A DNA stretch of 57,203 bases, taken from IMG/VR virus record IMGVR_UViG_3300033153_006620, positions 1-57,203 of that record; one strand, written 5' to 3'. This document shows, piece by piece, positions 11,641-52,831 of this stretch. The notes beneath the pieces were generated by a model, which made no database searches, was not told the DNA's origin, and saw only the letters and a program-made list of their open reading frames with translations. This DNA comes from a virus. The translations under genes and the position numbers were made by a program. Positions within the stretch are counted from its first letter, which is position 1; every line of letters begins with the position of its first letter.

Positions 11641-12821
11641 TCTTGCCGCCTTCTTTTCATTATCTTTTTGTATTTGTCATATGCCTCGCTTTTGGTCTGA
11701 GTAAAGCTTAATCCTTTGCACCAATAATCATTCTTTAAAAGAGCCTTGCATATTCTTTTCCAATTCGGTTTATCTTTGGTAATCGCGCCTTCATCAGGTA
11801 TTCCGTTAGGGTATCCTCTATCATAATACCATTTTAAAAAAACCGCTATTTTATTTCTATAATGTTCTTGGGTTTGCTTAGGCATTGACTGTAGTATCAT
11901 TTTAGAAAAAGATTCCCATGTATGTATGTCCGGTTTGGATAATGTAATATTACCGAGTATATTTCCGCTTTCTTTAGCGTATAATGCACCTTGATTCACA
12001 CCATTCACCCTTAGTAATATTTTAGTCCATGTTTCCGGCTCTATAATTTGAAACAGCCATAAGCCTTTTCTTTGGTCGTCTCCATAGGGTTGACAAATTC
12101 GCATTTGATGAATAGTGAGTCCTGCTAAATGCATCCTATCATACAGTCTATTGTAACATTTTTGAGTTTTCGCTATATATATCCAATCATCTCTTGTTCT
12201 CCAATCATATATTGGGTATGCATTATACAAATTGTTACTGCACCACGTTGTCCACTGGTGAGACATTAATGTTTGTTTTCTGGTGCTACATATAGTTCTA
12301 TATCTATTCAGGCTCTCATCGGTTCTTATCCCAACAAAACAGGCTGTTAATTTCCCTTTACCATACCAATGTCCAAATTGAGGGACAAACTCTTCAAACT
12401 CCATACCTTTTTTGAAAAAAGGAAAATAATTAATATCAGTGATGGCGAATTTAGGAGGAGTTCTTACCCACAAATCTTTCACATCTTCATCCCAACATAT
12501 CCAATGAGGTTGATATTGACTTACAGCGTTTCTTAGGTGAAGTGGTAAAGATACCCAAAAAGGATTTATGTAGTCTTTATATAATTTGTACATTTCTAAG
12601 CAATGCTCAATTGTCAGTTTATACTGAGCCTCAAGATCAACAAAAAGAACCCCTATTTTTTTATTGCGTTTAATAGCCTCGTCCATCACTAAGTGAAGCA
12701 TTACCGTGCTATCTTTCCCTCCCGAAAAACTTAAATAGATCATTGGTACGTTATCGAAAACCCATGAAATCCGTTGCTTTGCGGCTTCGTGTACATTTAT
12801 TTCTAATGGGATTTTAGCCAC
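11625..12821 (-). CDS. PAPS-reductase-family (adenine-nucleotide alpha-hydrolase) protein, IbrA-like
   Basis: PP-loop SFSGGKDSTVMLHL near the N-terminus; about 400 aa with a long C-terminal extension; paired with the ParB-like gene. Confidence 0.75.
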   Translation of the reverse strand: MAKIPLEINVHEAAKQRISWVFDNVPMIYLSFSGGKDSTVMLHLVMDEAIKRNKKIGVLFVDLEAQYKLTIEHCLEMYKLYKDYINPFWVSLPLHLRNAVSQYQPHWICWDEDVKDLWVRTPPKFAITDINYFPFFKKGMEFEEFVPQFGHWYGKGKLTACFVGIRTDESLNRYRTICSTRKQTLMSHQWTTWCSNNLYNAYPIYDWRTRDDWIYIAKTQKCYNRLYDRMHLAGLTIHQMRICQPYGDDQRKGLWLFQIIEPETWTKILLRVNGVNQGALYAKESGNILGNITLSKPDIHTWESFSKMILQSMPKQTQEHYRNKIAVFLKWYYDRGYPNGIPDEGAITKDKPNWKRICKALLKNDYWCKGLSFTQTKSEAYDKYKKIMKRRRQEWKLI

Positions 12822-13548: not shown

Positions 13549-13632
13549 GATAATTTGAGAAGTGGCGGAATTGGGGTGGAATCGGGGTTTTTTAGTGAAA
13601 AATAAATGCCGGATAATTAGGTTTTGGAATGG

Positions 13633-13656
13633 AAAAACCCCAGGTTCAACGAAACC
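13633..13656 (-). terminator. Weak terminator-like hairpin plus U-tract after the GT2-TPR gene
   Basis: Minus-sense GGUUU-CGUU-GAACC, then UGGGGUUUUU. Confidence 0.3.
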
Positions 13657-13685
13657 CAGGTCTTTTCGGTTTAGGAGGTGAAAAT

Positions 13686-14936
13686 CTATGGAGACAATCT
13701 GAATTTTTCTTTTAAGCCGGCTAATTCTGACATTATTTTATCTGATTTTTTTGATCGCCCGATCGCGACATAACAACAAGAAAGCGATGTGTACAAATCT
13801 TCTAAATTCGGGTAAGCTCTTTTTGCTTGCAATAAGCATTTGATGGCCTTTTTATATTTCCGGTCTTTTATGTAGATGTTAGAAAGTCCAATAAACGAAA
13901 ACATTTTTATGGAATCCACGTCAATACCAATAGAACCAGGCTTATAAGGCGTTTCTAGGGCCAATTTAAACCAACGCTCTGCGATTGTGCTATCATTCAA
14001 AATCACATGCAAACGGGCTAGATAGTAGATGGCATTGAGATTATGCTTATTCGATGCAAATGATTCTTCGAGTCTCACGATAGCTCGTTTATACTGTTTT
14101 AAATGCACTAATCCCATGGCAATATTGTAAGGGACCATGGTATGGATATCAGACTGGATTTTCTTTAGATTAGGAATTTTCAGGCACTTCTCATAAATGG
14201 AAATTCCGCGCTCCCATTCTCCAATTGTAAAGTGGGAATCGGCTAATGACATCGTAAAGCTGGGATCCGCACCAATTAGTTCGGGCTCCAAATTTGATAT
14301 TCGAATATTCCGGATAGCCTTTCTTTCGCGCTCCTCCCGGTTTTCGTATCCTGTGTGATAGATTTTGGCCGGTATGTAGTGACAATACAGTCCAAGTTCA
14401 GCGGCAGATCCCATGACTTGTTCATGTATCCGACGCTCAAATCTTATTTTGGGATGATTAGGAAACATTCTTATCTGCACGAAACGGGTTCCTATGGGCT
14501 GGCCGTCATTCGTATTTATAATATTAAATCCGAATATCCCACTTAATGGGGCGGTTTTTAAAAGATTAATCCCTTCGATTGATTCTTTTGGAATGCGGTC
14601 ATCTGCGTCAATCCAAAGAATCCATTTGTGAGATGCCATTTCAATGGATTGGTTTCGGGCAAGCGCGAAGTCGTCTTCCCAATCAGCAAATATCCTTGTT
14701 ATGTTTTTATCATACCCATGTTTAAAATTTCTCACAATTTTACCGGTCTGATCTTTGGAACCCGTATCATTGACAACTATTTGATCGGCTACTGGGATTA
14801 ATGATTCAAGACATTCAAGAATGTTATTCTCCTCATTTCGAACTATCATACACACCGTAAGCCCGTCTTTATAATCGGATTCTAAAGGCTTCTTTATTGT
14901 GCCAAATTTGGAGTTTAGGTCTATGTTATATTTCAT
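13686..14936 (-). CDS. Family-2 (GT-A) glycosyltransferase with a C-terminal TPR-like helical domain
   Basis: LTVCMIVRNEE..VVNDTGSKD..WIDADD (DXD); the C-terminal approx. 200 aa have repeated helical-pair (TPR-like) periodicity. Confidence 0.75.
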   Translation of the reverse strand: MKYNIDLNSKFGTIKKPLESDYKDGLTVCMIVRNEENNILECLESLIPVADQIVVNDTGSKDQTGKIVRNFKHGYDKNITRIFADWEDDFALARNQSIEMASHKWILWIDADDRIPKESIEGINLLKTAPLSGIFGFNIINTNDGQPIGTRFVQIRMFPNHPKIRFERRIHEQVMGSAAELGLYCHYIPAKIYHTGYENREERERKAIRNIRISNLEPELIGADPSFTMSLADSHFTIGEWERGISIYEKCLKIPNLKKIQSDIHTMVPYNIAMGLVHLKQYKRAIVRLEESFASNKHNLNAIYYLARLHVILNDSTIAERWFKLALETPYKPGSIGIDVDSIKMFSFIGLSNIYIKDRKYKKAIKCLLQAKRAYPNLEDLYTSLSCCYVAIGRSKKSDKIMSELAGLKEKFRLSP

Positions 14937-15157
14937 ATTCTACGTACCGAATCGATGATTAACTCACTCTTTTTATAATGGCCTTCAATTTCTTTATTAT
15001 GAGAACTTCCTTCAGCTAAATCTACTCCACAGGAATAAAAAGGACCATTCTGAATTTCATTTAATGAAAAATGAGTTAATTCAAATTCATCAATGATGGT
15101 TATGCCACTCTCTTTGTGTGATTTTGTTATGTATCCGCCGGGATTTAAGCTACTCAT
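14933..15157 (-). CDS. Small hypothetical protein (74 aa), translationally coupled between the radical-SAM and GT2-TPR genes
   Basis: 4-nt overlaps on both sides; no motif recognised. Confidence 0.55.
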   Translation of the reverse strand: MSSLNPGGYITKSHKESGITIIDEFELTHFSLNEIQNGPFYSCGVDLAEGSSHNKEIEGHYKKSELIIDSVRRI

Positions 15158-16176
15158 CTAAAAGATCCTTTATGGCTATTAGCCGGATTCATATCAAAAA
15201 CCCCTCCAATTCTATCCCACACCTTTTCGTATTCATCTGGAACTTTGGTTATGGGTTTTAAATCAGCGCCATCATAAGCGGCCATATAGTTTCGATTCCA
15301 CTTCCCGCAATGAAGTGAAGCTTTACACATCGAACATGGAAAGCCTTCGATTTCAACGCCTCTAGCAAGAGACTGAGCGTTGCGCCACATGGACATATAA
15401 GAGTCGTTAGGCCATATGTTGTTGTAACACCATTCAAATGTATCATAAACAACGTGCAGCGCATTAGTAACGTAACGCCAATATTTAGGTTTAAGATGGC
15501 AGAAAGGCTGATATCTTATAGTAGTCATAACACCTTCACTATGACAAATATCCATAGCCTCCTCAATGTATCTTTGGAGTTTTTCCGGGTGAACTGCTAT
15601 TTTCCGGGTATCCTCATGATTGTGATAATGCGGAAGAAAATTAAGCGCTACGAAATGCTTTACACCGTGGTCACATGCATACCTTGCAATATCGGGTAAT
15701 TGCTTATAATTATCTTGCTGCAAAGTGGTGTTAGAGCGCCATGGAAGCTTTTTTTCATGAAGCCAGTAAATAAGATTACCTTGGTTCTTTGCTGCTGTCT
15801 TAGTGCCTGTGACCTTATTTAAAGTGTCACCTAAGCCGTGTAGGCTTATATGCAAATGATCGAGCCCAGTTTCATATAATAATTTATACCGGTCAAGGCT
15901 CAAATTACCGCTTGTAATAATCGAAAACTTCATTTTTTGTGAGTTCACGAATTTAGTTAGATTATATATATCCGGATACATCATCGTTTCGCCCCATCCC
16001 ACAGCGACCACTTGATTACACCCACCCTCTTTGCCTATAATAATTTCACTTTTAATTTCTTCTAAAGGCTTGTCATATCCAGATTTAAAATCGTCAGAAT
16101 TGAAATGAAAACAGAAATTGCAATTATTAATACATTTCTTGGTTATTTCTATTCCTATTTTTTTACAGGGTTGCAT
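15154..16176 (-). CDS. Radical SAM enzyme
   Basis: CX3CX2C (CINNCNFC) at aa 15-22; GWGETMMYP (GGE-type SAM motif); C-terminal Cys cluster CSMCKASLHC. Confidence 0.8.
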   Translation of the reverse strand: MQPCKKIGIEITKKCINNCNFCFHFNSDDFKSGYDKPLEEIKSEIIIGKEGGCNQVVAVGWGETMMYPDIYNLTKFVNSQKMKFSIITSGNLSLDRYKLLYETGLDHLHISLHGLGDTLNKVTGTKTAAKNQGNLIYWLHEKKLPWRSNTTLQQDNYKQLPDIARYACDHGVKHFVALNFLPHYHNHEDTRKIAVHPEKLQRYIEEAMDICHSEGVMTTIRYQPFCHLKPKYWRYVTNALHVVYDTFEWCYNNIWPNDSYMSMWRNAQSLARGVEIEGFPCSMCKASLHCGKWNRNYMAAYDGADLKPITKVPDEYEKVWDRIGGVFDMNPANSHKGSFR

Positions 16177-16529
16177 TCGTATTTACCTACTGATAAAGAT
16201 TTAAGATTAAATTTTTTAACAATATTTCTTCTCATTATTTTCGCTTGTTTGCTGGCCAGAGAACTTTCACAGGAATCAATAGGAATGGACTTTCCTGTAG
16301 GGATACCGCCGTGAAGCCATGTACCATTATTCATTCTGCTAATAAATTCTTTTTGCTTTCTTACGTATGCTTTGAAATTCAGGGAATTAATAACCTTTTT
16401 CATCGATAAAGCGGTTATATTCATTTGTTTTGTGAGTTTATTAAAACATTTAACTGTAATTTCAACTCTCCTCGCAAAGCGTTTTACAGGGCTTTCTAGT
16501 GAGTGATATGTGTTTTCAGTTTCTAGCAC
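16155..16529 (-). CDS. Hypothetical protein
   Basis: GTG start right after AGGAGAGGG; overlaps the radical-SAM start. Confidence 0.5.
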   Translation of the reverse strand: MLETENTYHSLESPVKRFARRVEITVKCFNKLTKQMNITALSMKKVINSLNFKAYVRKQKEFISRMNNGTWLHGGIPTGKSIPIDSCESSLASKQAKIMRRNIVKKFNLKSLSVGKYECNPVKK

Positions 16530-17834
16530 TCACCCTCTCCTAACTAATTCATGATACAACGTTTTACTAGTCCAGTTATTAACAATAAGCTCAAAATCCG
16601 GTATTCTTTCTTTATAGTAAATAGATTTTGTATTGAGCCAATTATCAAGATACACCTGGGTATGAGCTACTGATTGCATTATCATATCCACATCTACATC
16701 AACTAACTTTCCCTTTTTCCATTTATAGTCTGTGATTTTGAAATGAGGTTCAAGCAATCCAATGGCTGTCATATCCCTATTCATCCTAATAAAATTCTGA
16801 TAGCACTCTTCAACATTAGGCTTTGTTTCTGCCATCATATCACCTGGAACCCACTCGGATAAGTCGCCGATTCTTTCCCCCTTTTTGTTCACAATGATTT
16901 TTTCCGTTCTTGCAAAATGTTGAGGCATTGAATTTAATATGTAATACATACCATCACTTAATAATCCGGTATCGTATTTAGTTCTTAAATTACCTATCCT
17001 CATCATGCTGTCAGGGTCTCTTGCTGGATTAGCCTCTAAACGTACGCCACATTCTTTTATACGTGCTTGCACTTCCTCATCTTCAATGTACTCCATGTCG
17101 GGTAAGACTCTTATAAACACAACAACATACCGACCCCTCTCACTGGGAGAAACTCTTAGCATCCTAAAATGAGGTTGCAAAGCATCTATGATTTTTTCTA
17201 AACAAAAGTCTTCTTTTTGCTTTGGCGTCCAATTTCCTTCTTTGGCAAATACTTTACAACTCGAATCATTACTTGATATAGGACCATCCAGAATTAAATA
17301 TTTCTCAGTCAATGCGGCAAGTTTTTTTGCCCACAAATAAGGCTCTGCACCGTATAGCAACGCGTCTTTATAAAAATGATGAATGACAGATCCACAGTAG
17401 ACAACATCAAATTTATTATAAAAGGCTCCACAATATTTTAATAAGCAATCATTAGCCTTCTTGAGTCCTTCATAATCCAGATTATTAAAATATTCCCATG
17501 ATTTGTCAATGCTAATGTCTCGCATTTCACCATGAATAAATTTGATATTATCAATGTTATGATATTTTCTTACATCCTCTGAAAATTGATGATATTCCGG
17601 GGCCACCTCATACCCCACTACTTTATCAAACAAATGCCTATACCCAAAGCACATCAAACCTTTGTTTGAGCCTATATCAAGTAATGTTTCACCACCCTGC
17701 AATAATTCTGGCATAGTCTTTTTTGCAAGCTCAAATCTATTTACGGATTCACTTCCATAAGGCTTAAGAGTTTCTATGTTATAATGTTGATTCCCTGGGT
17801 ATGTTAATTCTACCTCTCTTTGTGCTAGGCTCAT
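16530..17834 (-). CDS. Class I SAM-dependent methyltransferase with a large C-terminal domain of unknown function
   Basis: Motif I LLDIGSNKGLMCFG and acidic post-I VVGYEV. Confidence 0.65.
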   Translation of the reverse strand: MSLAQREVELTYPGNQHYNIETLKPYGSESVNRFELAKKTMPELLQGGETLLDIGSNKGLMCFGYRHLFDKVVGYEVAPEYHQFSEDVRKYHNIDNIKFIHGEMRDISIDKSWEYFNNLDYEGLKKANDCLLKYCGAFYNKFDVVYCGSVIHHFYKDALLYGAEPYLWAKKLAALTEKYLILDGPISSNDSSCKVFAKEGNWTPKQKEDFCLEKIIDALQPHFRMLRVSPSERGRYVVVFIRVLPDMEYIEDEEVQARIKECGVRLEANPARDPDSMMRIGNLRTKYDTGLLSDGMYYILNSMPQHFARTEKIIVNKKGERIGDLSEWVPGDMMAETKPNVEECYQNFIRMNRDMTAIGLLEPHFKITDYKWKKGKLVDVDVDMIMQSVAHTQVYLDNWLNTKSIYYKERIPDFELIVNNWTSKTLYHELVRRG

Positions 17835-18553
17835 GCTTTCCTTTCTGGTATTTCAATTACCGGTTTTTTCTGTTTAAATAAAAGCTGTGAATGAACGATC
17901 CTTATAGGACGGTCTCCATTTATCTTTCTAAATAATGCCAAATCTTCCCTATGTATTCTATGGGCAGTATCCCTCGATCTCTCCCTTACTATAACACCGC
18001 CTCTATGTTCCGTATTTGTTGCGTCTGAAAACGACCATTTCTCAATCCCATATTTCTGGACAAATCTCAATTGGTGTTCTAAATCACCTATGTATAAATT
18101 GTACCTCCAATCCACAGGACATTCTAGATAAGTCTCTGTAGTCATGATAAAAGAATATAACATAAACCCGGCAGCTATTGACCTTTTCCGGACTTCCCGG
18201 CCTGAATAATATTGATTAATCATAAGCATGTGACCGTCTTGATATCCCCTTAGATGGTCCTCTAGCCATGCGGGATTAGGAAATGTCATGTCTTGGTGAA
18301 TATACGCCATGTATTTAGTTTTAACCTTTAACGCCCCTATGTGGAAAGCTTCGAATACTCCCACCCGTTCTTTTAAATAAATGGTATCGATTCCGCGCCC
18401 ACGTAAATATTCTAATGTTTCGGGATTAGAGAAATTATCAACAACTAATAATTTGTAAGGATAATTCGTTTTTTCGAGAGAATTTAAACAATTCACAGTG
18501 TCATCCAACCCATTATAAGTAACCATTACAATTGTGATATCTTTATTTTCCAT
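17831..18553 (-). CDS. Family-2 glycosyltransferase
   Basis: ITIVMVTYNG..CLNSL...LLVVDNFSNPET N-terminal GT2 signature. Confidence 0.7.
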   Translation of the reverse strand: MENKDITIVMVTYNGLDDTVNCLNSLEKTNYPYKLLVVDNFSNPETLEYLRGRGIDTIYLKERVGVFEAFHIGALKVKTKYMAYIHQDMTFPNPAWLEDHLRGYQDGHMLMINQYYSGREVRKRSIAAGFMLYSFIMTTETYLECPVDWRYNLYIGDLEHQLRFVQKYGIEKWSFSDATNTEHRGGVIVRERSRDTAHRIHREDLALFRKINGDRPIRIVHSQLLFKQKKPVIEIPERKA

Positions 18554-18566
18554 AAATTAATCTGCC

Positions 18567-19121
18567 TTATTTTTTTAAGAATACGGTTATAGATCCGATC
18601 GTATCGATTCTTTTTATGTCCTGTCTTGTTAATAATTCCGCAACCATATATTTGTTCACAGACCACTCATTATGGGTGCTATCATGCAATAGAATATGCC
18701 CTCCATTTTCAATTTTCGGAAACCAAGATTCAAAATCATTTTTCACACCTTTATATGAATGGTCCGCGTCTATGAATAGAAAATCTATGCTTTTATCATC
18801 GAATAAATTGGCTGATTCGGATGTATTTTTTTTATACACATCAATATTATGTTTCTGTGCTAAAATATTTTTAACATCTTTGTAATAATGCGGTTCATCT
18901 TTAAATAAGTCTTTGTAATGCGATTTCGTTCCACATTCTATTTTATCGATATCTTCAAATATATCAAACGTAGATACCTTGGCTGCTATTTCTGATAGAA
19001 CCCAAGCCCCTCCCCCGAAATAAGTTCCAAGCTCAACAGCATGTTTTTTTTTCGTCGCGTATTTTTTTAAACAAGCCACATCCCGAGATCCAAGAAGCTT
19101 TTTTGGTGCAGGTTTAATCAT
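18567..19121 (-). CDS. Class I SAM-dependent methyltransferase (small O-methyltransferase type)
   Basis: VELGTYFGGGAWVLS motif I and FLFIDADHSY..GGHILLHD. Confidence 0.7.
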   Translation of the reverse strand: MIKPAPKKLLGSRDVACLKKYATKKKHAVELGTYFGGGAWVLSEIAAKVSTFDIFEDIDKIECGTKSHYKDLFKDEPHYYKDVKNILAQKHNIDVYKKNTSESANLFDDKSIDFLFIDADHSYKGVKNDFESWFPKIENGGHILLHDSTHNEWSVNKYMVAELLTRQDIKRIDTIGSITVFLKK

Positions 19122-19179
19122 TATTCACCGGAGAACGTGGTTTGCCTTTCATTGGCGGTTGCATAGGTAATGTCATTTG

Positions 19180-19812
19180 TCATTCCCTCACGTAAATCTC
19201 ATTAATATCCAAATCAATTATTTTAACATACCCGTTATCATTCATAAGCTTTTCAATGGGGAATGTTTTAAAGTTGTTTTCGATGTCAAATACTTCGATA
19301 TCGTATGTACAGAAACCATTAGCCTTTGAGAAAGCTTCTAATAGTGGATATTCTGCACCCTCTACATCAATACTCATATAGTCTATATGACACATTTTGG
19401 CCTCATACAACGCATCGTATAGAGGGACCATTTGAACTTTAGTGGTTTCTATTTGTGACGGAGCAATGTGTTTATCCATACGCTCTTTGTGCTTGTCTTC
19501 GATATAATCTTCTACACCTGACCATCCAATCAATCCACCGCTAACAGATGTAAAATTAACCATAGCTTTCTTGTCACCTATAGCATAATTAAGACATTTA
19601 CAATCCCGGTTTTTTGTTAGCTGCTTGTATGACTCTGGATGAGGTTCTATACATAAACCAGTCCATCCCATTTCACGCTCGAAATAAAGGCTGTTAGAGT
19701 GTAGCAAGCCATCGAGAGCGCCGAATTCGACAAATACCCCGTCTTGTTTGCCTTTGAATAGGTTTTCTGATAGCCATTTATCCTGGTTGTGTTCGCTTGA
19801 GTATTTATTCAT
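19180..19812 (-). CDS. FkbM-family methyltransferase
   Basis: VFVEFGALDG..GLCIEPHPESYKQLTKN..IDYMSIDVEGAEYPLL pattern. Confidence 0.7.
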   Translation of the reverse strand: MNKYSSEHNQDKWLSENLFKGKQDGVFVEFGALDGLLHSNSLYFEREMGWTGLCIEPHPESYKQLTKNRDCKCLNYAIGDKKAMVNFTSVSGGLIGWSGVEDYIEDKHKERMDKHIAPSQIETTKVQMVPLYDALYEAKMCHIDYMSIDVEGAEYPLLEAFSKANGFCTYDIEVFDIENNFKTFPIEKLMNDNGYVKIIDLDINEIYVRE

Positions 19813-20323
19813 TATTTTCCTTTTCTAGCCAGTTCATGATATCACCCAAATAGTCAGTATGCATTATAATACCGTCTTTGCGTTGGTTCTGATTCCATTG
19901 TTCGTATTTTTTAAAATAGAATTTAAACATAGCTTTTATTAATTGATCTTCGCGCTTTTCCATATCAATTGAGCCATGCAATATTACTGCTTTATTATCT
20001 GGAAAAACGTGCTCTAAATGTTCCTTTACCTTGTTATGCTCCCTATTACAAACGTTCGGCATTGTCAAAACGATAATATCACCTTTTTTCAAATTGAGTT
20101 TGCTTATCGATTGTATTTGTGGTACGCCTAGCCATTCCCCTAGAAAATCATAGAGTTTTTGAGCTTCGGGCTTAGTGAGTTGTACAGAATCATCACAACG
20201 ATAATCCTTATCTTCAACAAATTCACTTGGTCCCGATCTTAGGTGTAATTCATTTTCTTCAATGAAAAACATTAATGAATCCCCATCATTCTGTTTTATC
20301 ACTTTTATTGGTTTGTCAGTCAT
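19805..20323 (-). CDS. Hypothetical protein (start moved to ATG 20323)
   Basis: AAGGAACATAAAA precedes ATG 20323. Confidence 0.55.
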   Translation of the reverse strand: MTDKPIKVIKQNDGDSLMFFIEENELHLRSGPSEFVEDKDYRCDDSVQLTKPEAQKLYDFLGEWLGVPQIQSISKLNLKKGDIIVLTMPNVCNREHNKVKEHLEHVFPDNKAVILHGSIDMEKREDQLIKAMFKFYFKKYEQWNQNQRKDGIIMHTDYLGDIMNWLEKENNE

Positions 20324-20470
20324 TTTTATGTTCCTTACCTTTGCATATATTCCGATCTTTGTTGCACCCATGGCATGGACATTCCCCTGAATTAATCAGC
20401 GCCATAACTAGATGCCCACGCAAAGTACAATCTTTAGGTATATATCCTTGACTAATAGCCATTTTCAGCA

Positions 20471-21862
20471 TTATATCATCCATTTTTTCACAATCTCACT
20501 TTCCCGAACTGAAACCGGCAAATCTTTTAATTCAATAACTTTAACACCTTTCCACGCTTTTTCATGTCCTTCGGCGGTATGAAAATTATCAGCATTAGGT
20601 AATTTATCCCATTTCTCCCTTTTCCATTCAACCAAATCAACATGCCCATAAGCGTCCTTTTCAGCTTCATAAATATTTTCAATCTTTTGGAATAGTGTTT
20701 TTTCGTCTTCCCTAACATAAGTAAAATGATGGAATCTAAAATCATTGCATCTCAATACCCCCTGTATACCACATCCTCGGTGCCCTTTAAAGCTGTTTGA
20801 TTGCAACCTATAAAGCACGATAGGAGCTAATGATTCAGGCGGTGATATCCTATAGAAAGGTGATTTTATGTAAGTGTGCATAAAACAGGAATAAGCATTG
20901 GCTTTCTGATTTTCATTAGCAAAATGTATTATTCCTTTTAAATCTTTTCCAGGCCAAACCTCATCGGTATCGAAGAAAAGACATAATTTAGCGTCAAAGT
21001 TTTTTATTATATAATCCAGGCCGAAAAGATATTGCTTTAATTGATTCTGAGATGTGTAATCTAGATTGACTATTTTATTCTCATTGTCATGCGATTTAGC
21101 CCATTTTTCAATTATTGGCTTGACATCATTACCCCACTCCCCGCACCAAGACAAATCTGAATGCACAAATACAATCTTTTCGACATGAGGATATATGCCT
21201 TCAATAGCCGGGATTATAAACTCTTTTCCCCGCCACACCTTGCATAATGCCACAACTTTTTCCATTTTTGCTCCCCATTTTTTCTGAAAATATGCTTTGT
21301 TGGTATTCCAATAGAATCCGCCCTGGTTTTTTGCTTCGTTTAAATGAGTTAATTTGCACCGGTTATCAGTTACGAAATACTTATCATGTCCGTATTTTTC
21401 TAGCATTTGCCTACAAAAATCATCGTCTTCAAATCCACTACCGATAAATCCTTCATCGAATCGTAATTCGGATTTTCGGAAAGCTATACACGCGGTAGGG
21501 ATTTTCGTTGAAGCTATTAAGTCAACATTTAAATCATAGTTTTCCACCATTGTATAAGCGCATTTACCGTTTTTATTCATTAGCCGGGCAGATGATATTA
21601 TTACATTTTCATCGGTTAATAAAGCCCGGACCAAATCGATATCCCACCCCCAATAGAACCCGGTCATATCATCATCCATCATTATAACGATGTCTGAAGT
21701 GGCCCTGGCAAGCCCTTCGTTACGATTTTCAGAAGCACTGCCATCTATCCCGGTGAAAATTATCTGGCCTTCAGATACGCGGGTTAACGCTACGTCATTA
21801 ACCTGATTTTGAACTTCAGATAAATGTTTGCATGATGGAATTATGATGTCAATTTTAATCAT
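20471..21862 (-). CDS. Two-domain glycosyltransferase (N-terminal GT2 with DDD; second GT-A-like half)
   Basis: IDIIIPS..GIDGSASENRNEG..IVIMMDDDM; the second half has LCLFFDTDEVW (DXD-like). Confidence 0.65.
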   Translation of the reverse strand: MIKIDIIIPSCKHLSEVQNQVNDVALTRVSEGQIIFTGIDGSASENRNEGLARATSDIVIMMDDDMTGFYWGWDIDLVRALLTDENVIISSARLMNKNGKCAYTMVENYDLNVDLIASTKIPTACIAFRKSELRFDEGFIGSGFEDDDFCRQMLEKYGHDKYFVTDNRCKLTHLNEAKNQGGFYWNTNKAYFQKKWGAKMEKVVALCKVWRGKEFIIPAIEGIYPHVEKIVFVHSDLSWCGEWGNDVKPIIEKWAKSHDNENKIVNLDYTSQNQLKQYLFGLDYIIKNFDAKLCLFFDTDEVWPGKDLKGIIHFANENQKANAYSCFMHTYIKSPFYRISPPESLAPIVLYRLQSNSFKGHRGCGIQGVLRCNDFRFHHFTYVREDEKTLFQKIENIYEAEKDAYGHVDLVEWKREKWDKLPNADNFHTAEGHEKAWKGVKVIELKDLPVSVRESEIVKKWMI

Positions 21863-22236
21863 TTTAAAAATTCTTTCCAGTTGCTATTCTGCAATATATG
21901 AAAATACGATCCGTCAACGAACCCCTTATAAAATTCATCTTCCGTACATTTTACATTTATCCGGTACATGCCAGATTTAAAAGCCGATAAAAAATGTAGC
22001 GGCGGTTTTTTTATAAAAAGAGAACTACTAGGCGAACAATAATAAAATGAGTGATCTTCGCCATTGCGCGTGTAGTCGTACCCACGTCCGTCAAACTCTA
22101 CAATTTGTTTTAAAAAATAAATGTGATACGTTATAGCACAATCGCTGCCGTAAGACGAACATCCCTCGGGATTCATCAAAAGCATATAAGGCCTTATTTT
22201 ATGACCGTCTTTTGTTTTTAGTGATAATTCTTTCAT
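21859..22236 (-). CDS. Hypothetical protein
   Basis: 4-nt overlaps with both flanking glycosyltransferase genes. Confidence 0.6.
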   Translation of the reverse strand: MKELSLKTKDGHKIRPYMLLMNPEGCSSYGSDCAITYHIYFLKQIVEFDGRGYDYTRNGEDHSFYYCSPSSSLFIKKPPLHFLSAFKSGMYRINVKCTEDEFYKGFVDGSYFHILQNSNWKEFLK

Positions 22237-23015
22237 CTTTTCAGCTTCAAATAAAGTTCATTCTCAATAAAACTTGATGCTTCAATACCGTGCAATTCTT
22301 TAATTTTCAGAAGCCCTTTTTTAGTAGTCTCAAGGTCAAATTTTCCATTATCCCGGTGATGCACATAAACGGAGGTATCAACAAAGGGATGAAGTTTATT
22401 TTTCGCGGCCCTTATGATCCATTCTGTTAAGCAAATATCTTCCGGCAAATCCTCGAATTCCCCAACAAAATCCCACATTACACGGTGTATTAAAAAGCAG
22501 AAACTTGATATTTTCATAGGAGCCACTTTTTTAGTGTACTCCCTGGTGACTTCTGATTGAATCTCTGCAACGGACCTTATATCATTGACTACTTTGTATT
22601 CCTCATATGATTTTAAAGCCTGGTCGGAGTTAGATGAACATGTCAGAGGGCCTATGCATGATGCCATAGGCTTTGTCTTTATCCCTTCAAATAAATTCAC
22701 ATTCCACATCGGGGAAACTATTGTGTCATCATGGAGTACTATGACCAATTGAAGCTCATTTTCTTTAACTTTCCGGGTTTTCATCATACCGGCATTAACC
22801 GATAAAGCAAAACTAAGCTTTTCTTTTGAAAGAATATAACGGGTTTTCTGAAAATAATTATTCCAAAAGTAACCTTTACGGATTCCAGAGTGCCCGACTA
22901 CAATAATTTCATAATCTCCGCCGGTATTTTCTCTTACGGATTTTAAGCATAAATCAAGATTAGTCTGGTTGGTGGCTACGATTATAATAGAATATTTAGG
23001 TTTCAATTTTCTCAC
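22233..23015 (-). CDS. Family-2 glycosyltransferase
   Basis: YSIIIVATNQ..CLKSV..YEIIVVGH and VLHDD (DXD). Confidence 0.7.
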   Translation of the reverse strand: MRKLKPKYSIIIVATNQTNLDLCLKSVRENTGGDYEIIVVGHSGIRKGYFWNNYFQKTRYILSKEKLSFALSVNAGMMKTRKVKENELQLVIVLHDDTIVSPMWNVNLFEGIKTKPMASCIGPLTCSSNSDQALKSYEEYKVVNDIRSVAEIQSEVTREYTKKVAPMKISSFCFLIHRVMWDFVGEFEDLPEDICLTEWIIRAAKNKLHPFVDTSVYVHHRDNGKFDLETTKKGLLKIKELHGIEASSFIENELYLKLKR

Positions 23016-23139
23016 CTTTTTTTAATTTGCTTAACATTTGGTTATAAGTAATCTTTACACCATGCTTTTTTCCGAAGCTTTTTTGAACTGATTTAAGCCA
23101 GGCATAAATTTTATCTGATATACGGATTGTTTTAGACAT
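22996..23139 (-). CDS. Small ribbon-helix-helix-like protein (47 aa), first gene of the glyco cassette
   Basis: MSKTIRISDKIYAWLKSVQKSFGKKHGVKITYNQMLSKLKKGEKIET. This reading is more plausible than the 67-aa ORF 23055..23258 in another frame. Confidence 0.35.
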   Translation of the reverse strand: MSKTIRISDKIYAWLKSVQKSFGKKHGVKITYNQMLSKLKKGEKIET

Positions 23140-23319
23140 AATAGCTCTTTTAAAATTTCAGAACTGACGATGCGATATAGCTGTTGAGTATTGACGTACT
23201 CCAGACAAAACCGCAGGGAAGGGTAAAGCCCTAGAAAACATGAATCCTTCTTTTCCACATATCGTTTTACACGTCACTATAAAATTAATATTTGGCATCA
23301 CAATCAAAATAACACAAAA

Positions 23320-23335
23320 GTAGACTCAAGTCTAC
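23320..23335 (-). terminator. Perfect palindromic hairpin GTAGACT-TG-AGTCTAC flanked by T-runs and A-runs (bidirectional terminator type)
   Basis: Read directly; minus-sense context is UUUUU-hairpin-UUUUGUG. Confidence 0.55.
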
Positions 23336-23354
23336 AAAAATCGTATATTATTTT

Positions 23355-23413
23355 GAAAAGGGGCTAAAGATGCTGAAAAAGAGCCCCCAAATCAGCGTAA
23401 ATTCTTTAGCCCC
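23355..23413 (-). terminator. Terminator after the late operon: 11-bp stem GGGGCTAAAGA/TCTTTAGCCCC with a nested GCTGA/TCAGC hairpin, followed by UUUUC
   Basis: Inverted repeats at 23360-23370 and 23403-23413; begins 10 nt after the stop of gene 23423-24280. Confidence 0.6.
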
Positions 23414-23422
23414 CGAAGGAAA

Positions 23423-24280
23423 TTATTTTGATTCTGGTGTTGCTGTGCAAACGGATAATCTTTTCACTTCCGTTTCAAGCTCTAAAATCTTTTGTTCTTT
23501 ATCCCCGACTTCCGATTTTAGCTTTTCAATTTCCAATTGTAATTTCAGTCCATGATTATAAACCCGGACATACTCATCATTTTTCAGTGAATCCAATTTG
23601 CTTGAAGCTTCTTTGTACTCCAATAGATTTTTTGGTGGCTGGCTCTTTGTTTCTTTGTCCATCTCAGATTTCCTTTCTCTTTTTTGAACGTGGTTGGCTT
23701 TAAAATTGTCATCTAAATATAGTTTAAATCCGTGACTACGCATATATAAACAAAACCCGTAATCCCAACATGAATATTTTATTACACCGTCCTTCTCGAA
23801 TTTATAAGGGTGAAACCATTCTTCCTTAGATGTAGCTTTCAGAGACTCCATAGAAATCATTAATGCACCTTCAGCACTGAAATCTATTTCCCGGAAGCCG
23901 TGGGATTCATCGGATTTGAGATAATTAAAACTATTATCTTTGTCTATAGTTCCCATGTTTAATAATTTTCTTCGTCCTTGGCGTTGAATCCATGGCGTTA
24001 ATATGTGTATCTTTTTATTAACCATTACATCAACCATTTCCTCAGCTTGTTCAATATTAAATTCCTGGTCACTATCCCACATCCACAGATAGTCAAAATC
24101 AGAATCTAAATGTTTTTGGCAAACCATATTCCTAGCCGCCATAATATTAGTGCATTCGCAAAACTTATGCTCGAATGTATGGTTCTTGGATTTGGATAAG
24201 GATTTAATAAATTTAATAGCAGGTATTGAATCCGCTTTCCGAAGGCTTCTAATTAATGTTATCACTAATATTTTCATCAT
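23423..24280 (-). CDS. GT-A-like glycosyltransferase with a C-terminal coiled coil, translationally coupled to the tail fibre gene
   Basis: Start MMKILVITL overlaps the fibre stop (ATGA at 24277-24280); DXD-like WMWDSDQEF; K/E heptad-like tail. Confidence 0.55.
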   Translation of the reverse strand: MMKILVITLIRSLRKADSIPAIKFIKSLSKSKNHTFEHKFCECTNIMAARNMVCQKHLDSDFDYLWMWDSDQEFNIEQAEEMVDVMVNKKIHILTPWIQRQGRRKLLNMGTIDKDNSFNYLKSDESHGFREIDFSAEGALMISMESLKATSKEEWFHPYKFEKDGVIKYSCWDYGFCLYMRSHGFKLYLDDNFKANHVQKRERKSEMDKETKSQPPKNLLEYKEASSKLDSLKNDEYVRVYNHGLKLQLEIEKLKSEVGDKEQKILELETEVKRLSVCTATPESK

Positions 24281-25605
24281 GTTCCCATAAATAAGGCTAA
24301 TCTTATCATTAAATGTTCGCATCCTAAATCAGGTGTGCCTGTATCTGTTGTTCTTAAAACAACTTTAACAGTAGCCGAAGCAGGCAAATCTAGATAAGTA
24401 CAACCTGACATTGACCCATCTTTTGAAACCGCATTCGTTTCAATATGGTTTTGACCGTTATCAATTGGAGTCCCATTTACCGAGAATGTGCATTCAACAT
24501 GCTTACCAGCTGCGTCAGCCATAAATGATCCAGCCCAATCAGCCAGGTAAACCCCTGCATTAATTACTGTTAATTCTCCGTTCCCGTCGTGTGTAACACC
24601 GTTTAATACCCCACTAGTCATATCAGCATCAGATATGGTATACCATGCATTTTGCGTAGCACTAGCCTGTACCCATCCAATATCATTACCGTAGCATGTT
24701 CCGCCTATGATGCCTTTGTTTGCGGTCCAAAATTCTAGGTTTCCGTATACACTGATTTCATTATTACTCAATGCAATTCCAACATCCCCAACCGTTAACC
24801 AAAGGTCGTCGGAAATGCTTTCGATATATATATTATCTCCGTCAATATTTATACTACCAAAACTAGTTGAATCGATATAAATATCACCAGCACTATTTTT
24901 ATCTATATTTAAGTTAGTTCCATCGGAATATATTGATCCGTCAACAGAAAATAAAATACCCTTATCATCTAGAAAAGATAAATCACCGCGTACTGAAATG
25001 TCTTGATCTTCGTGAATTGTCATAGCCAATACATTCTCATCGGTTTTAAAAATAATTCTACCGTCTGTACGATGTGTTGCAATAATAAAGTCATCGGCGT
25101 TATTACTCCATTCAATTGAAACATCTAAATCAGCGCCATCATAAAAGTCTACCGCTAATAAGCCATCATCATCATCATTGTCGATGCGAAGGCTGGTTCT
25201 TCCGGCCACATCTTTATTGATTGTAACATTATCCTCACATGTCCACGCTCCCTCCATGTTTACAGATGCATCTTTTATTATAATATTAGCAGAATCCGGG
25301 AAACCTGAAAATGGAGTTAAAAATGTATCAAGGTCTTTTAAAAGTGGCTGTAATGGTCCATCTCCATTCAATACGGTGAATGCATCATCTTCAACGCCTA
25401 TTAATAAAGCTCCAGAATCACCTGCCGCAATATCATCCAACTTTTCCAGTGAAGGGAAGTGAAGGTAGGTGGTATCAGCAACTATCTCTGTTATTAATTC
25501 AAGCCTGTTTGATTCAACATTAACTCCAATTTCCCATAATGCCAAATCGTCTTCAACCGCGCCGCGTGTTACGCCATCTAATTGCGTTTGTATTTCTTCA
25601 GCCAT
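24277..25605 (-). CDS. Tail fibre / receptor-binding protein with a C-terminal jelly-roll (C1q/TNF-like) tip
   Basis: Last structural gene; Asp/Gly/Ile-rich beta-repeats; the C-terminal 120 aa (GVYLADWAGSF..VECTFSVNG..ATVKVVLRT) follow the C1q-like strand pattern. Confidence 0.5.
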   Translation of the reverse strand: MAEEIQTQLDGVTRGAVEDDLALWEIGVNVESNRLELITEIVADTTYLHFPSLEKLDDIAAGDSGALLIGVEDDAFTVLNGDGPLQPLLKDLDTFLTPFSGFPDSANIIIKDASVNMEGAWTCEDNVTINKDVAGRTSLRIDNDDDDGLLAVDFYDGADLDVSIEWSNNADDFIIATHRTDGRIIFKTDENVLAMTIHEDQDISVRGDLSFLDDKGILFSVDGSIYSDGTNLNIDKNSAGDIYIDSTSFGSINIDGDNIYIESISDDLWLTVGDVGIALSNNEISVYGNLEFWTANKGIIGGTCYGNDIGWVQASATQNAWYTISDADMTSGVLNGVTHDGNGELTVINAGVYLADWAGSFMADAAGKHVECTFSVNGTPIDNGQNHIETNAVSKDGSMSGCTYLDLPASATVKVVLRTTDTGTPDLGCEHLMIRLALFMGT

Positions 25606-25612
25606 ATTTTCC

Positions 25613-28600
25613 TCAACATGTTAATTCTCTTGGAGATGAGCCAGCATCTTTTATTGTATAATCGCCAATAGTGCGTCCCGTTGATCCTGCACTATTCATC
25701 TTCCCATTTTCATTAGTCCATCCAGTGATATCCCTATCAGTGTTTAAAGCATTATTAAAATTATCACACAATGGACCGAAAACCCCAGGCGGTTGATATA
25801 CATGAACACCTATTTCAGCCGTACCAGCATATATGTCAATCCTTATCATAGTAACAAATCCCTCTACATCTTCATCATCGGTATGAAAATGGCTATTCAC
25901 TTTCACAAAATCCATGATAGCAAGTGGAGTAGGTTCCAAGACTTCTTTTATTGACACTTTGAATTTGAATTGCCACACATTCAATACGAACCATTTAGCT
26001 ACCCATTCAGCAAGAGGAAGCGACTCATAATGATATTTAAAATCCATCTTCAAATTGTTTCTTATTTTGTAGATATCTTTGGATATACCAATAAATCTTT
26101 TTATTTGAGTGCTTCCTGTGTTACTATCAATAAGAGTATTTTCATTATACTTTTGCAGGGCTGCACTGAATTCTGAAGGGATATAATAATCCCAATTTAA
26201 GTGATACTCTGTAAATATTTCATTTGTTCGTCTGAATTTTGGAGGACTTAAGGAATCGACTAATATATTTGAATCATCAAAAGTTCTAGTTGGCGAACCT
26301 TGTGGGTAATCATCCGGATTCATTGATTTAAAGGATATTTTATCATCAACATCAATAACAGCACATGCCCATAGGTTTTGCAATAATTCATTCAATGTTG
26401 CTTTAGTGCTTAAATCCTGCGTAAATTGCCGCCTCCAATTCCATCCTGAGCGGGTACTGAGCGCCATAAGTGATGTAATAGAAGTCGCATCCCATTGATT
26501 TAAATACATGCTTGGAGAATTCATGATATCTGTTACAATAGCTTCAGGTTCGCTTGAAAATATTCCTGAGAAGGTGCGGCCCCTGGCGGGTGCAAAAAGA
26601 GGCTTATCTATTGTCTCGATTTCCTGTTCATAATACAGTTCCGGTCCTTTTATAAATTCAAGTCCCACATACCAATTAATGTTCGAAGGCATAGGATCCG
26701 TAGATGAAAATTGATTACTAAGAGATTTATTGACAATTAAAAACTCCACATCGGTAACTTCATCCCATACCTGATCATCTCCAAAGGGTTTTGTTGATAG
26801 GTCGAAAATATCACGGCCTTGATATAATATATTCCTTTCATCTTCCTCTTGTGCAGTCGATAACCGGGTCAACACACCCCCCACAACCTCCCACATTTCA
26901 GATAGAGTCCCTCCCGATGACATTAATTTCATTCTAGTTCCATTATCAATAGGATTATCACCGCTGAGGCCCCACGAACCACCACTGTATTCATACAATT
27001 TATTATCAGTCTTATTCCAAAGAAAATCACCCTCGACCTGTGAAACCGTGGCAGTTCCCGGAAATATATAGGATATTTGATATGAATATCTGGACGTCAA
27101 TGATGTGGTACTTTCCCTAAATCCTCCGTTATTGAGGAGTCCATCTGGAAAATTATTTAATTTTATCTTTCCTATTGTTTTTTCTATATCTAATGAAACA
27201 CCGAGACTAGTCTCATTCGCTTCGAAGTCGTGCTTCCAACCATCACTGTCAACGTAATCTCCATTTTTCTTTTTAAATCTTAGTATCAATTTAAAAGGAG
27301 CATTAAAATATCTAAATTTTCCATCGCTATATATAGTTTTCACAAAACTATTGATTTCTAAATTCATACAAAGCTTTATATTGGTACTACTGTTAAACTT
27401 AGCCTCATTAGTAGCATTTCTTGCAACTGGAAAGCTTATAGCATGAACGAAAGTATTTTCACCCAAGGCGTCAGATATGTTTAAATCCTGCTTAGGGTTT
27501 AAGTGAGAATACCGCCTAATCTTTAAAGATTTCGGACTGGTTTCGCCTGAAGCTAGGATGTCACCTCTAGGGGTTTCGCTGCCGCCTTTCATATAAGCTG
27601 TATATGCATATGAATAAGTAGATGTTGCGGCACGTTTCATTTGTTTAAAATCAGTCTCAGTTATATTCGTGATCGACCCTGGCGGAGTCAAATCAACATT
27701 AGGCATTTGAGCGTTCAAATCTAAATTTTCCGTACTGCCTTCGTTTATATCGGCGAATCCAAGAACGCCTTTTTGCCAGAGTATAGGTTTCCATCCCCCA
27801 AAATCAACGGGACCATGAACGGCAACTTTTGATTCATCAACGCTTGTTCTTGGATTTAATAGTACAAGATTCTTATCAGCATTAATGATGTATTCGGAGT
27901 CAGGTAATTTTTTTATGAATTTACCGGTATCATCCAATCCGAACAATTCAAATACCTCAGTAAACGAGGATCCCACAGATCTACCAAAACCACCACAAAT
28001 CTCTTCATCAATTTGAAATTGGTATTTCCTTTTGGCAATTTTTATGGTGAGGTAATCTAATGTATTTGGCGGATCCGCTCCGCCCGCATCGGGTTGAGTC
28101 GTAAATGCTTCATCGATTGTAAGTACATAATAGTCGGAGCCCGCGCTATTAATGGATTCTATTTTTCTGGTTTCATCTATATTTTCTGAGCCAGATTTCG
28201 TGTCGGATATTATCTGAATAGAATAAACAGCATTATCGAGATCAGCAATTAACTCACTTGAAAGTAAATATTGATTTTTACCACTCTGCTCACTTTTCCT
28301 GATATATATTTCTTTAAAAGGTGAATTGTTGTTTATTTGACAACTAGCGGTAGGTACAGAATTAAATTCGGTATCACCGGAAGCTTTTCTCTCGACACTA
28401 ATATATTCGATATCGGTAGAAATGTTTTGTAATGCGGCCAGTTCATGTTCACCATAAGTTAAATGTGGTGGTTTGCCTAGGAATTGCGTTTGAACATCGT
28501 CATACCTATTATTAGAGATTCCAGTATCTTCAATAACACTGTCAGGAAACTTGTCATTTTTGTTTAAAGAAAATGGTTCTACTTTATATTTATAATTTGC

Positions 28601-30425: not shown

Positions 30426-30706
30426 GTTATCTCCGATATTCCTGTAACAGTTTGTGTGATGATTGATCGGCCTGATGCTACTTGTTTTATTATTGAATCA
30501 TCCTGTACCGTATGTGTTATTATAGATCGTCCCTCGATTACTTTTACGTCAACGGTAGATATCCATGAAATTCCGGAATACATTCCTAAGCGTTGTTGAC
30601 GGCTAGCACCATTAAAACTACCTACTGGTATATGCGCATTAGTCCTTTTCCAAGGTAATCTTGCTCTCATGGCTGAACGCCGCTTCTGTCTTGTGTCAAT
30701 AGCCAT
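30422..30706 (-). CDS. Minor tail / structural protein
   Basis: Position; internal duplication GRSIITHTVQDD / GRSIITQTVTG. Confidence 0.4.
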   Translation of the reverse strand: MAIDTRQKRRSAMRARLPWKRTNAHIPVGSFNGASRQQRLGMYSGISWISTVDVKVIEGRSIITHTVQDDSIIKQVASGRSIITQTVTGISEIT

Positions 30707-52811: not shown

Positions 52812-52831
52812 ACCTCCATTTCTGATTTTTA

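Follow-up and report, generated by a model that had tools for sequence, protein, structure and literature searches.

A soluble operon of glycosyltransferases, methyltransferases and a radical-SAM enzyme beside the tail-fibre genes of a tailed phage, and its possible role in protein glycosylation

The cassette and its enzymes

The viral DNA analysed here, IMG/VR record IMGVR_UViG_3300033153_006620 (positions 1 to 57,203; the whole of this stretch is called the window below), carries directly after its tail-fibre genes a cassette of glycosyltransferase (GT), methyltransferase (MT) and radical S-adenosylmethionine (radical-SAM) genes. The cassette runs from position 23139 down to 13686 and holds 13 open reading frames (ORFs), all on the minus strand and tightly packed: adjoining ORFs overlap by 4–22 nt or are separated by gaps of 0–99 nt, a 4-nt overlap being the commonest junction. 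The gene products include four proteins with five GT-A domains between them, two well-supported O-methyltransferases, a further protein with weak similarity to methyltransferases, and a radical-SAM enzyme (rSAM); the cassette is a soluble glycan-building and tailoring operon. Its central part, a core of four elements, recurs in many other phages. The enzymes were assigned with Pfam, NCBIfam and PHROGs profiles and, in the case of the tandem GT and the rSAM, with AlphaFold2 models searched with Foldseek.

The solubility of the system follows from the composition of its proteins. None of them contains a membrane segment (no hydrophobic 19-mer exceeds 1.4 on the Kyte–Doolittle scale, the maximum 19-residue hydropathy being 1.37), and the Pfam and NCBIfam scans revealed no domains for nucleotide-sugar synthesis and no flippase, polymerase or ligase either in the cassette proteins or in the approximately 40 other window ORFs scanned. 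Integral-membrane flippases and polymerases of the Gtr or Wzx/Wzy type and GtrA/GtrC-type proteins were likewise not found in the cassette by Pfam or by hydropathy. The first-pass annotation had reported the lack of all these functions, had seen no membrane proteins and had argued against reading the locus as one for O-antigen or seroconversion; on each of these points the profile and hydropathy scans agree with it, no membrane or export machinery being present in the cassette.

Terminator-like hairpins fold well in the intergenic gaps on both sides of the cassette, as that annotation had proposed; the twelve co-directional genes that it had counted between them do lie on one strand at the coordinates it gave, but their number is 13. 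The hairpin at 23345..23420 (−), with a 12-bp GC-rich stem followed by UUUUC (ΔG −25.1 kcal/mol, z −3.3), ends the late (tail-fibre) operon, and another one is located at 23312..23345 (−), where GUAGACUUGAGUCUAC is followed by UUUUGUGU (−8.2 kcal/mol). At the 3′ end of the cassette a 9-bp stem followed by GUUUUUCC is present at 13628..13668 (−; ΔG −15.5 kcal/mol). Terminator-like sites are no more numerous in the region than expected from shuffled sequence, and these hairpins are meaningful only by their intergenic placement. A candidate sigma-70-like promoter, TTGTGA-16-TATAGT, lies ahead of the cassette at 23276..23303 (−); it is a consensus match only, and the number of such matches is not above chance.

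All four GT-A/GT2 proteins proposed earlier for the cassette are supported by Pfam GT2 matches. The most central of them is the 463-aa tandem GT-A protein (20471..21862, −), which belongs to the core and consists of an N-terminal domain, GT_N (residues 1–198, DDD motif), and a C-terminal domain, GT_C (residues 199–463, DTDE and HHFTYVR motifs). Pfam recognises GT2 in the N-terminal half only (1e-8), and the two-domain organisation that had been read from the sequence was borne out by the AlphaFold2 model (pLDDT 93.9), which Foldseek identifies as a tandem GT-A protein with K4CP, PmHS2, LH3, LARGE1 and SunS as the top matches. The GT_C profile had GmaR as its only match among the PDB sequences, and the tandem GT matched none of the 50,697 records of GenBank phages. 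Two further GT2 enzymes are accessory: a 240-aa protein at 17831..18553 (−; Pfam GT2 1e-13), which is 63% identical in the sister phage described below (L001; L numbers denote the related loci of our collection) and 35% identical in L068, and a 260-aa protein with an HDD motif at 22233..23015 (−; Pfam GT2 4e-7), which is common to L001 only, at 42% identity. Outside the cassette, the last gene of the late operon (23423..24322, −, with an alternative start at 24280) follows directly after the gene of the 442-aa fibre-like protein and encodes an accessory GT-A-like protein of 299 aa with a C-terminal coiled coil. The first-pass annotation had listed it as a further GT-A gene inside the late operon. 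Its position is as described, but the GT-A assignment is weak (Anp1 0.003, a rhamnosyltransferase model 5e-4, phrog_1574; a DSD motif is present). L001 has a 30% identical homolog in the corresponding place. Nothing useful came from searching the PDB with the sequences of GT_N, the 240-aa and 260-aa GT2 proteins, this 299-aa protein and the 434-aa protein described below.

The fourth cassette glycosyltransferase (GT2-TPR; 13686..14936, −) combines a GT2 domain with a DAD motif (Pfam 1e-19, residues 27–123) with tetratricopeptide repeats (TPR) at residues 270–380. Searched against the PDB, it matches GmaR (6e-21), SunS (5e-18) and ThuS (4e-13), the next solved GT2 following at 1.5e-6, so that these three match it 10^7- to 10^15-fold better than other solved GT2s do. 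GmaR is the O-GlcNAc transferase of Listeria flagellin, and SunS and ThuS are peptide S-glycosyltransferases. The best NCBIfam model is that of SunS, at 78.3 bits against an equivalog cut-off of 350 bits. By these scores, GT2-TPR belongs to the GmaR/SunS/ThuS clade without being a SunS ortholog, and it is a candidate for the acceptor-recognising enzyme of the system. Among the cassette ORFs, no flagellin, conserved small ORF or exporter was found near it. Two unrelated bacterial homologs of GT2-TPR are each preceded by an unannotated ORF of 122–124 aa (L094, 7381–7755; L096, 7643–8011), which could be a partner or a substrate.

The radical-SAM assignment made earlier (15154..16176, −) also holds, with a Pfam Radical_SAM match of 2e-17 and the motif CINNCNFC. 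In the alignment of the rSAM family the CX3CX2C motif (C15, C19, C22) is accompanied by four further conserved cysteines, C226, C281, C284 and C290 (CX2CX5C), which would be enough for one auxiliary Fe-S cluster. The C-terminal part, the last third of about 100 residues, has no Pfam SPASM match and no close structural match. The AlphaFold2 model (pLDDT 94.3) has SkfB, viperin, SuiB, BlsE, MoaA and DesII as its nearest neighbours in Foldseek at TM ~0.5; because only the generic radical-SAM core aligns at this level, the substrate cannot be read from the fold. The family is small: the rSAM profile retrieved 157 proteins only at E≤1e-30 from 1.84 billion representatives. Among its 58 long proteins GT2 is present in 19 and TPR in at least four, and the 25 commonest domain families of these 58 proteins include no DNA-related domain. 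Among these family representatives (P0202–P0346), four of the 58 carry intein splicing domains, and several are very large, with multiple domains and lengths of up to 2230 aa. The GT-coupled rSAM forms a distinct subfamily defined by its coupling to GT2. This coupling, which extends throughout the family, points to a putative sugar-tailoring step in which rSAM would act either on the donor or on the sugar once attached.

Of the three SAM methyltransferases that had been proposed, two stood up. The FkbM-family O-methyltransferase at 19180..19812 (−) matches Pfam at 2e-16 and exceeds the NCBIfam fkbM_fam cut-off, and the Methyltransf_24 protein (MT24; similar to CmcI and rhamnosyl O-methyltransferases) at 18567..19121 (−) matches at 1e-16; both are of the core type. 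The third, a 434-aa protein at 16530..17834 (−), has an N-terminal class-I methyltransferase-like fold (DIGSNKG), but its Pfam methyltransferase matches (E ~2e-4) are below the cut-offs, and its C-terminal half has no assigned function. It is nevertheless a recurrent accessory protein, 79% identical in L001 and 30–48% identical in L021, L022, L032, L039, L048, L049 and L077. The remaining ORFs are mostly short. The cassette opens with a basic, possibly ribbon-helix-helix-like ORF of 47 aa without a family match (22996..23139, −), which has a 57% identical counterpart of the same length in the same place in L001. An ORF of 125 aa (21859..22236, −), without a family match, and one of 188 aa (19805..20371, −), with a sub-threshold Big_8 match only, are not conserved in L001; the cassette further contains a very basic ORF of 124 aa (16155..16529, −; net charge +17) and one of 74 aa (14933..15157, −). 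An all-against-all search revealed no conserved small ORF that might serve as a precursor or acceptor across the lineages.

A core module in phages and bacteria

When every cassette ORF was compared with the related loci by tblastn, a core of four parts emerged: rSAM, GT_N, GT_C and an O-methyltransferase, which is either FkbM or Methyltransf_24. The rSAM homologs (41–74% identity) are all located on phage-like contigs and always adjoin methyltransferases and GTs. In many loci rSAM has an FkbM homolog (38–61% identical) as its neighbour, which in L007, L011 and L012 is fused to GT_C, while most of the rSAM loci that lack FkbM carry an MT24 gene instead. GT_N and GT_C have both been retained almost throughout the related loci, as separate genes or joined to FkbM, MT24 or rSAM, and in nearly all loci of at least 6 kb the four core parts are co-directional within ~6 kb. 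Other fusions include GT_N-GT_C-MT24, GT_C-GT_N, GT_C-MT24, GT_C-FkbM and GT_N-(TcdA-like GT)-FkbM. In IMG/VR, single-protein pattern scans with rSAM and the capsid protein gave no match and an alignment-profile scan gave 8 loci; with these included, the profile scans of IMG/VR and metagenomes added 75 loci, which together with those already collected represent 64 rSAM clusters at 85% identity. The source metagenomes are from sediment, groundwater and other habitats. A scan of a genome collection with a 12-sequence alignment retrieved two contigs of metagenome-assembled genomes (MAGs; Planctomycetales and Deltaproteobacteria bins), which are probably phage-derived or too short to interpret. 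The closest relative, L001, is a syntenic sister phage with a 74% identical rSAM, in which small ORFs are swapped and a sulfotransferase is added. The first-pass annotation had called the cassette unusual for a genome of this size. This has to be revised: the core is a recurrent phage module and the window represents one elaborated member, most of its accessory genes (the 47-aa ORF, the GT-A-like gene, further GTs) being common to L001 only.

Cellular relatives of the module also exist. Bacterial proteins of 540–695 aa are rSAM-GT_N-TPR fusions, for example P0070 from a Syntrophobacteraceae MAG. In a Syntrophobacteraceae MAG (L014/L015), a chromosomal operon beside ffh-rpsP-trmD-rplS is headed by an rSAM-GT-TPR fusion and further encodes a TPR protein, a 938-aa GT2-TPR-GT2-TPR protein and a 419-aa GT2-TPR protein, and it includes no transporter. 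The GT2-TPR of the window is 40% identical to one of the two GT2-TPR proteins of this operon (L014). The operon is a cellular counterpart of the phage core.

The position of the core in the phage genomes differs between the lineages. In L005/6 it separates the head-completion genes from the tail genes, in L011–13 it lies a short way downstream of the capsid gene, in L002–4 and L008 it stands between terminase and portal, and in L016 it adjoins the terminase; in L007 and L009 it lies among early/replication genes. In the window and in L001 the cassette directly follows the fibre genes, with which the GT-A-like gene is co-transcribed. This pattern fits late co-expression with the virion proteins. 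In the P22-portal-type lineage (L002–L004, L019; ~8.6–14.7 kb), the stretch separating the large terminase from the portal holds the core and a ThyX gene, and a Mom-like gene is present ~9 kb upstream. On L016, a contig of 385 kb and thus of jumbo-phage size, a GT_C-MT24 fusion, GT_N and rSAM come right after the terminase, with a reverse transcriptase and a DNA methylase nearby.

We took a census of the neighbours, covering 235 non-core ORFs of at least 150 aa from 31 distinct loci, with the families counted as they occur among the matches listed. Apart from portals, terminases and capsids, it contains 12 further GT2 proteins, 6 Gly_transf_sug proteins, 10 sulfotransferases, 1 APS kinase, 2 LicD proteins, 2 hexapeptide acetyltransferases, 1 UDP-Galp mutase and 1 NTP-transferase. 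ParB_N (6), N6/N4 DNA methylases (3) and HNH endonucleases are the other recurrent families. Tet_JBP and thymidylate-synthase families do not appear among the families listed with at least two members in the 235 ORFs. The glycan-tailoring neighbours (sulfotransferases, APS kinase, LicD, acetyltransferases, UDP-Galp mutase and NTP-transferase) favour the assignment of the module to glycan synthesis.

The genome that carries the cassette is that of a tailed phage, of 57.2 kb in the window, with nearly all genes on the minus strand. Its phage origin, assumed from the outset, is confirmed by the large terminase (TerL, 44951–46405), the portal (42819–44954), the HK97-type capsid protein (40036–41256) and the tape-measure protein (33278–35713). 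A 1398-aa tail protein and the very acidic 442-aa fibre-like protein together occupy 24277–29809. The phage has no near relatives in GenBank: megablast with the cassette found no match among the phage records, and the best identity of the window portal to them is 27%. Its GC content is 37%, and that of the relatives ranges from 32 to 73%. No integrase or repressor was recognised among the window ORFs scanned, several of which have no match at all. The fibre-like protein carries a net charge of −56, and its gene (24277–25605, −) immediately precedes the GT-A-like gene (23423–24322); the protein might serve as an acceptor or partner. Just downstream of the cassette, at 11113–12821 (−), an IbrB-like ParB_N gene (175 aa, 11113–11640) overlaps an IbrA-like PAPS-reductase/DUF3440 gene (398 aa, 11625–12821); this pair is absent beside the L001 cassette, and a DUF3440 gene is also found ~10 kb from rSAM in L009. 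An HslV/proteasome-like subunit (47150–47689, +; Pfam Proteasome 6e-6) is encoded by one of the few sizeable plus-strand genes, within the stretch of ~46–49 kb where the GC skew becomes positive. An RtcB RNA ligase (51621–52850, −; 1e-114) is present in this phage, in which no tRNA genes were found, and may repair host-cleaved tRNAs.

The proposed acceptor of the glycan

Our tentative preference, to which we give a rough probability of 0.45, is that a methylated glycan is assembled in the cytoplasm on protein, most likely on the phage's own virion protein or proteins. The first-pass annotation had already proposed a methylated oligosaccharide built in the cytoplasm on a soluble acceptor; the soluble operon stands, its proteins being membrane-free, and we would now narrow the acceptor to protein because of the kinship of GT2-TPR to GmaR, SunS and ThuS, the GmaR match of GT_C and the existence of TPR fusions. 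The TPR serves as a protein-substrate module in GmaR, FlmG and OGT (PMC9638930, PMC7591256). The location of the core within morphogenesis modules in several lineages points in the same direction, and because independent lineages carry it within their sets of head, tail or packaging genes, virion proteins are favoured in particular. We infer the acceptor, the order of the steps and the chemistry of rSAM as follows. GT2-TPR or the GT_N/GT_C pair would attach the first sugar, taken from host nucleotide sugars, to a Ser, Thr or Cys residue of the acceptor, with the TPR repeats of GT2-TPR supplying protein recognition. The tandem GT-A protein may then lengthen the chain along with two or three accessory GT2 enzymes. 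The rSAM, which is coupled to GT_N both genetically and physically throughout the family, may modify the donor or the sugar already attached by an oxygen-independent radical reaction, for example a dehydrogenation, an epimerisation or a deoxygenation, and the FkbM, Methyltransf_24 and 434-aa enzymes would O-methylate or cap the glycan.

Several observations weigh against this interpretation. Structural genes within 10 kb of the core are not clearly enriched relative to chance for a phage of 40–60 kb, and the core is found amid early/replication genes in L007 and L009. It also occurs with very different capsid and portal types, and therefore the virion acceptor would have to differ among the lineages. 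The virion proteins of the window that were scanned have no striking Ser/Thr-rich tail; the most Ser/Thr-dense stretches, which are weak leads only, are residues 70–94 of a 275-aa protein (14/25; 38660–39487, −) and the C-terminus of a 331-aa protein (13/40; 30706–31701, −). The tandem GT, GT2-TPR, FkbM and the 240-aa GT2 had no match in Mycobacterium phage records (tblastn, E≤1e-4), and Gordonia and Streptomyces phages were also absent among the tblastn matches of these four proteins; the queries were these four cassette proteins, without rSAM and without the mycobacteriophage GTs themselves. The contexts of two bacterial GT2-TPR relatives lack flagellar or S-layer genes and are uninformative. 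Finally, there are cases in which GT-A folds akin to those of cell-wall enzymes have come to serve in the glycosylation of DNA (bioRxiv 10.1101/2023.12.21.572611).

The same enzymes might instead remodel the host envelope, with the soluble GTs and O-methyltransferases acting at the cytoplasmic face of the membrane on polyprenyl-linked intermediates of O-antigen, capsule, teichoic acid or S-layer glycan and relying on a host flippase or ABC exporter; the outcome would be a superinfection block or an altered receptor display. GT2, FkbM and Methyltransf_24 are typical of O-antigen and glycolipid tailoring, and many GTs of this kind are peripheral and have no membrane segments. LicD, sulfotransferases, UDP-Galp mutase and NTP-transferase, seen beside the core in the relatives, are common in cell-wall glycopolymer loci, the PHROG labels of the cassette proteins are 'moron / host takeover', and the multi-GT clusters of cyanophages are usually interpreted in this manner (PMC12801897). 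We nevertheless consider the envelope an unlikely target. Neither the cassette nor the core includes a flippase, polymerase, ligase, acyltransferase or membrane protein; lysogenic conversion is unsupported, since no integrase or repressor was detected among the window ORFs scanned, several of them without matches; the core lies within late morphogenesis modules in several lineages; and two of the GT domains are nearest to solved protein or peptide GTs and not to those acting on lipid-linked glycans, besides which TPR fusions exist. Less probable still is DNA hypermodification, in which the GTs would glycosylate a modified base, the methyltransferases would tailor the sugar, as in the 5mYOX/ThyA-dependent clusters, and rSAM would activate the base without oxygen. 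The first-pass annotation had rated DNA as the less likely acceptor. In principle DNA deserves more weight than it was given there, because phage clusters that join GT-A or GT-B enzymes, O-methyltransferases and ParB-like proteins, often with terminase neighbours, are known to hypermodify DNA (PMC13229309; bioRxiv 10.1101/2023.12.21.572611). The ParB_N (11113–11640) and PAPS-reductase/DUF3440 (11625–12821) genes lie just downstream of the cassette, ParB_N is the top neighbour family in one half of the census (6/118 ORFs), the core of L002–4 has a ThyX gene with a Mom-like gene upstream, and the compatibility of the core with any capsid type is what a DNA target predicts. Moreover, the habitats, as far as the sample and contig names tell, may be largely anoxic, and the O2-dependent 5mYOX cannot work there. 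Against a DNA target stands, however, that no enzyme making a hydroxymethylated base was detected: Tet_JBP, a thymidylate-synthase-like hydroxymethylase, a nucleotide kinase and aGPT-Pplase are missing from the window ORFs scanned (several without a match), from the matches listed for 12 lineages in precomputed Pfam annotation and from the families listed with at least two members in the 235 neighbour ORFs. In the window ParB has an IbrA-like gene as its partner, and it is missing next to the L001 cassette; several of the neighbouring ParB_N proteins carry HTH_ParB or accompany N6_N4 methylases, as ordinary phage ParB and methylase genes do. The fusions of the rSAM family are with GT2 and TPR and not with DNA-binding domains, the bacterial chromosomal operon is TPR-rich, and the neighbouring sulfotransferases, LicD proteins and acetyltransferases are without precedent in DNA modification.

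Two other products would involve proteins or peptides and appear to us about as improbable as modified DNA. If rSAM and the SunS-like GT matured a glycocin- or sactipeptide-like peptide, or a glycosylated metabolite, acting on competitors or on host physiology, one would understand why the best NCBIfam model for GT2-TPR is that of SunS, which is prophage-borne in SPbeta, why SkfB, SuiB and PqqE, maturases of ribosomally synthesised and post-translationally modified peptides (RiPPs), are among the neighbours of rSAM, and why the cassette holds small ORFs of 47, 74, 124 and 125 aa. Yet of these ORFs only the 47-aa one is conserved in L001 and none across the lineages; Pfam revealed no leader peptidase, ABC exporter, RRE domain or thiol-disulfide oxidoreductase in the cassette proteins; the SunS score is 78 bits against a 350-bit cut-off; and the rSAM, with its one predicted auxiliary cluster, has no Pfam SPASM match. 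Five GT-A domains and three methyltransferases indicate an oligosaccharide, unlike known glycocins. The acceptor could also be a host protein outside the virion (flagellin, pilin, an S-layer protein, a defence or translation factor), glycosylated for takeover or disarming during infection. The evidence for a protein acceptor applies here equally, flagellin being the usual target of GmaR-type enzymes (PMC9638930), and the independence of the core from the capsid type fits a conserved host target; the late/morphogenesis placement and the co-transcription of the GT-A-like gene with the fibre genes fit a virion target better, and a long methylated glycan would be unusual for the inactivation of a host protein.

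The pairing of rSAM with GTs also allows a bolder proposal, which we regard as doubtful: rSAM may make the attachment site on the acceptor, or a novel sugar that only this GT transfers, so that the pair would constitute a new oxygen-independent glycosylation route. A site-creating rSAM would be the anaerobic counterpart of the hydroxylase-GT pairs, such as LH3 on collagen and TET/JBP-GT on DNA.

Relation to known systems and significance

A precedent exists in mycobacteriophages, whose virions are reportedly O-glycosylated by phage-encoded GTs (Freeman et al. 2023, cited in PMC11256854). The likeness lies in the phage-encoded soluble GTs without export machinery and in the siphovirus-type genomes; the difference is that the four proteins tested have no Mycobacterium phage match at the threshold given above. 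Freeman et al. 2023 (Cell Host Microbe) reportedly found virion O-glycosylation in Che8, Corndog and Myrna, with glycans on capsid and tail-tube subunits. We know of no radical-SAM enzyme and no tandem GT-A/rSAM/O-methyltransferase core in the mycobacteriophage systems, and the GT-coupled rSAM core is the new element of the system described here.

At the level of single enzymes the closest parallels are GmaR, SunS and ThuS, which show the same domain order as GT2-TPR, GT2 followed by C-terminal TPR or other helical repeats; SunS is, moreover, prophage-encoded, just as GT2-TPR is phage-encoded. In contrast to these enzymes, the GT2-TPR of the window has no precursor peptide, exporter or MogR-antirepressor domain and sits in an operon with multiple GTs, methyltransferases and rSAM. 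The 463-aa protein resembles K4CP (the chondroitin polymerase of E. coli K4), PmHS2 (Pasteurella heparosan synthase 2), LARGE1 and LH3 in having two GT-A domains, each with a DxD-type motif, but the identity is ~10%, and in many related phages the halves are separate genes or are otherwise fused. Because GT_N and GT_C are separate genes in L005–L009, an obligatory single-chain, processive alternating polymerase is not implied. In sequence and structure, the nearest neighbours of rSAM are sugar or nucleotide enzymes with one auxiliary cluster (BtrN, DesII, BlsE, viperin, MoaA) and the RiPP maturases SkfB, SuiB and PqqE, which share with it the partial TIM-barrel core, the CX3CX2C motif and extra conserved cysteines; it differs from them in its C-terminal third, which lacks a close match, and in its coupling to GT2. 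The 5mYOX/ThyA-dependent DNA clusters resemble the window in their GTs and O-methyltransferases; they also contain ParB-like genes and often lie near the terminase (PMC13229309; bioRxiv 10.1101/2023.12.21.572611), but their TET/JBP dioxygenase or ThyA-like hydroxymethylase was undetected in the window ORFs scanned or, among the matches listed, in its relatives.

The consequences depend on the acceptor. If DNA or host glycans were modified instead of the virion, the module would represent a new oxygen-independent route to such modification, and in either case the GT-coupled rSAM subfamily constitutes a family of uncharacterised enzymes whose genetic context is clear. If the proposed rSAM-GT route is real, a radical-tailored glycan, methylated or sulfated, would cover the virions (or, with lower probability, the DNA) of many phages in the metagenomes from sediment, subsurface and groundwater that were sampled. 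To our knowledge, glycosylated phage particles have been demonstrated for mycobacteriophages only and were considered rare elsewhere. Should virion decoration prove true, phage glycobiology would extend well past the Actinobacteria, and the core module would provide a sequence marker for finding glycan-coated phages. The glycan coat itself could shield the particles, change their adsorption or raise their stability in sediments.

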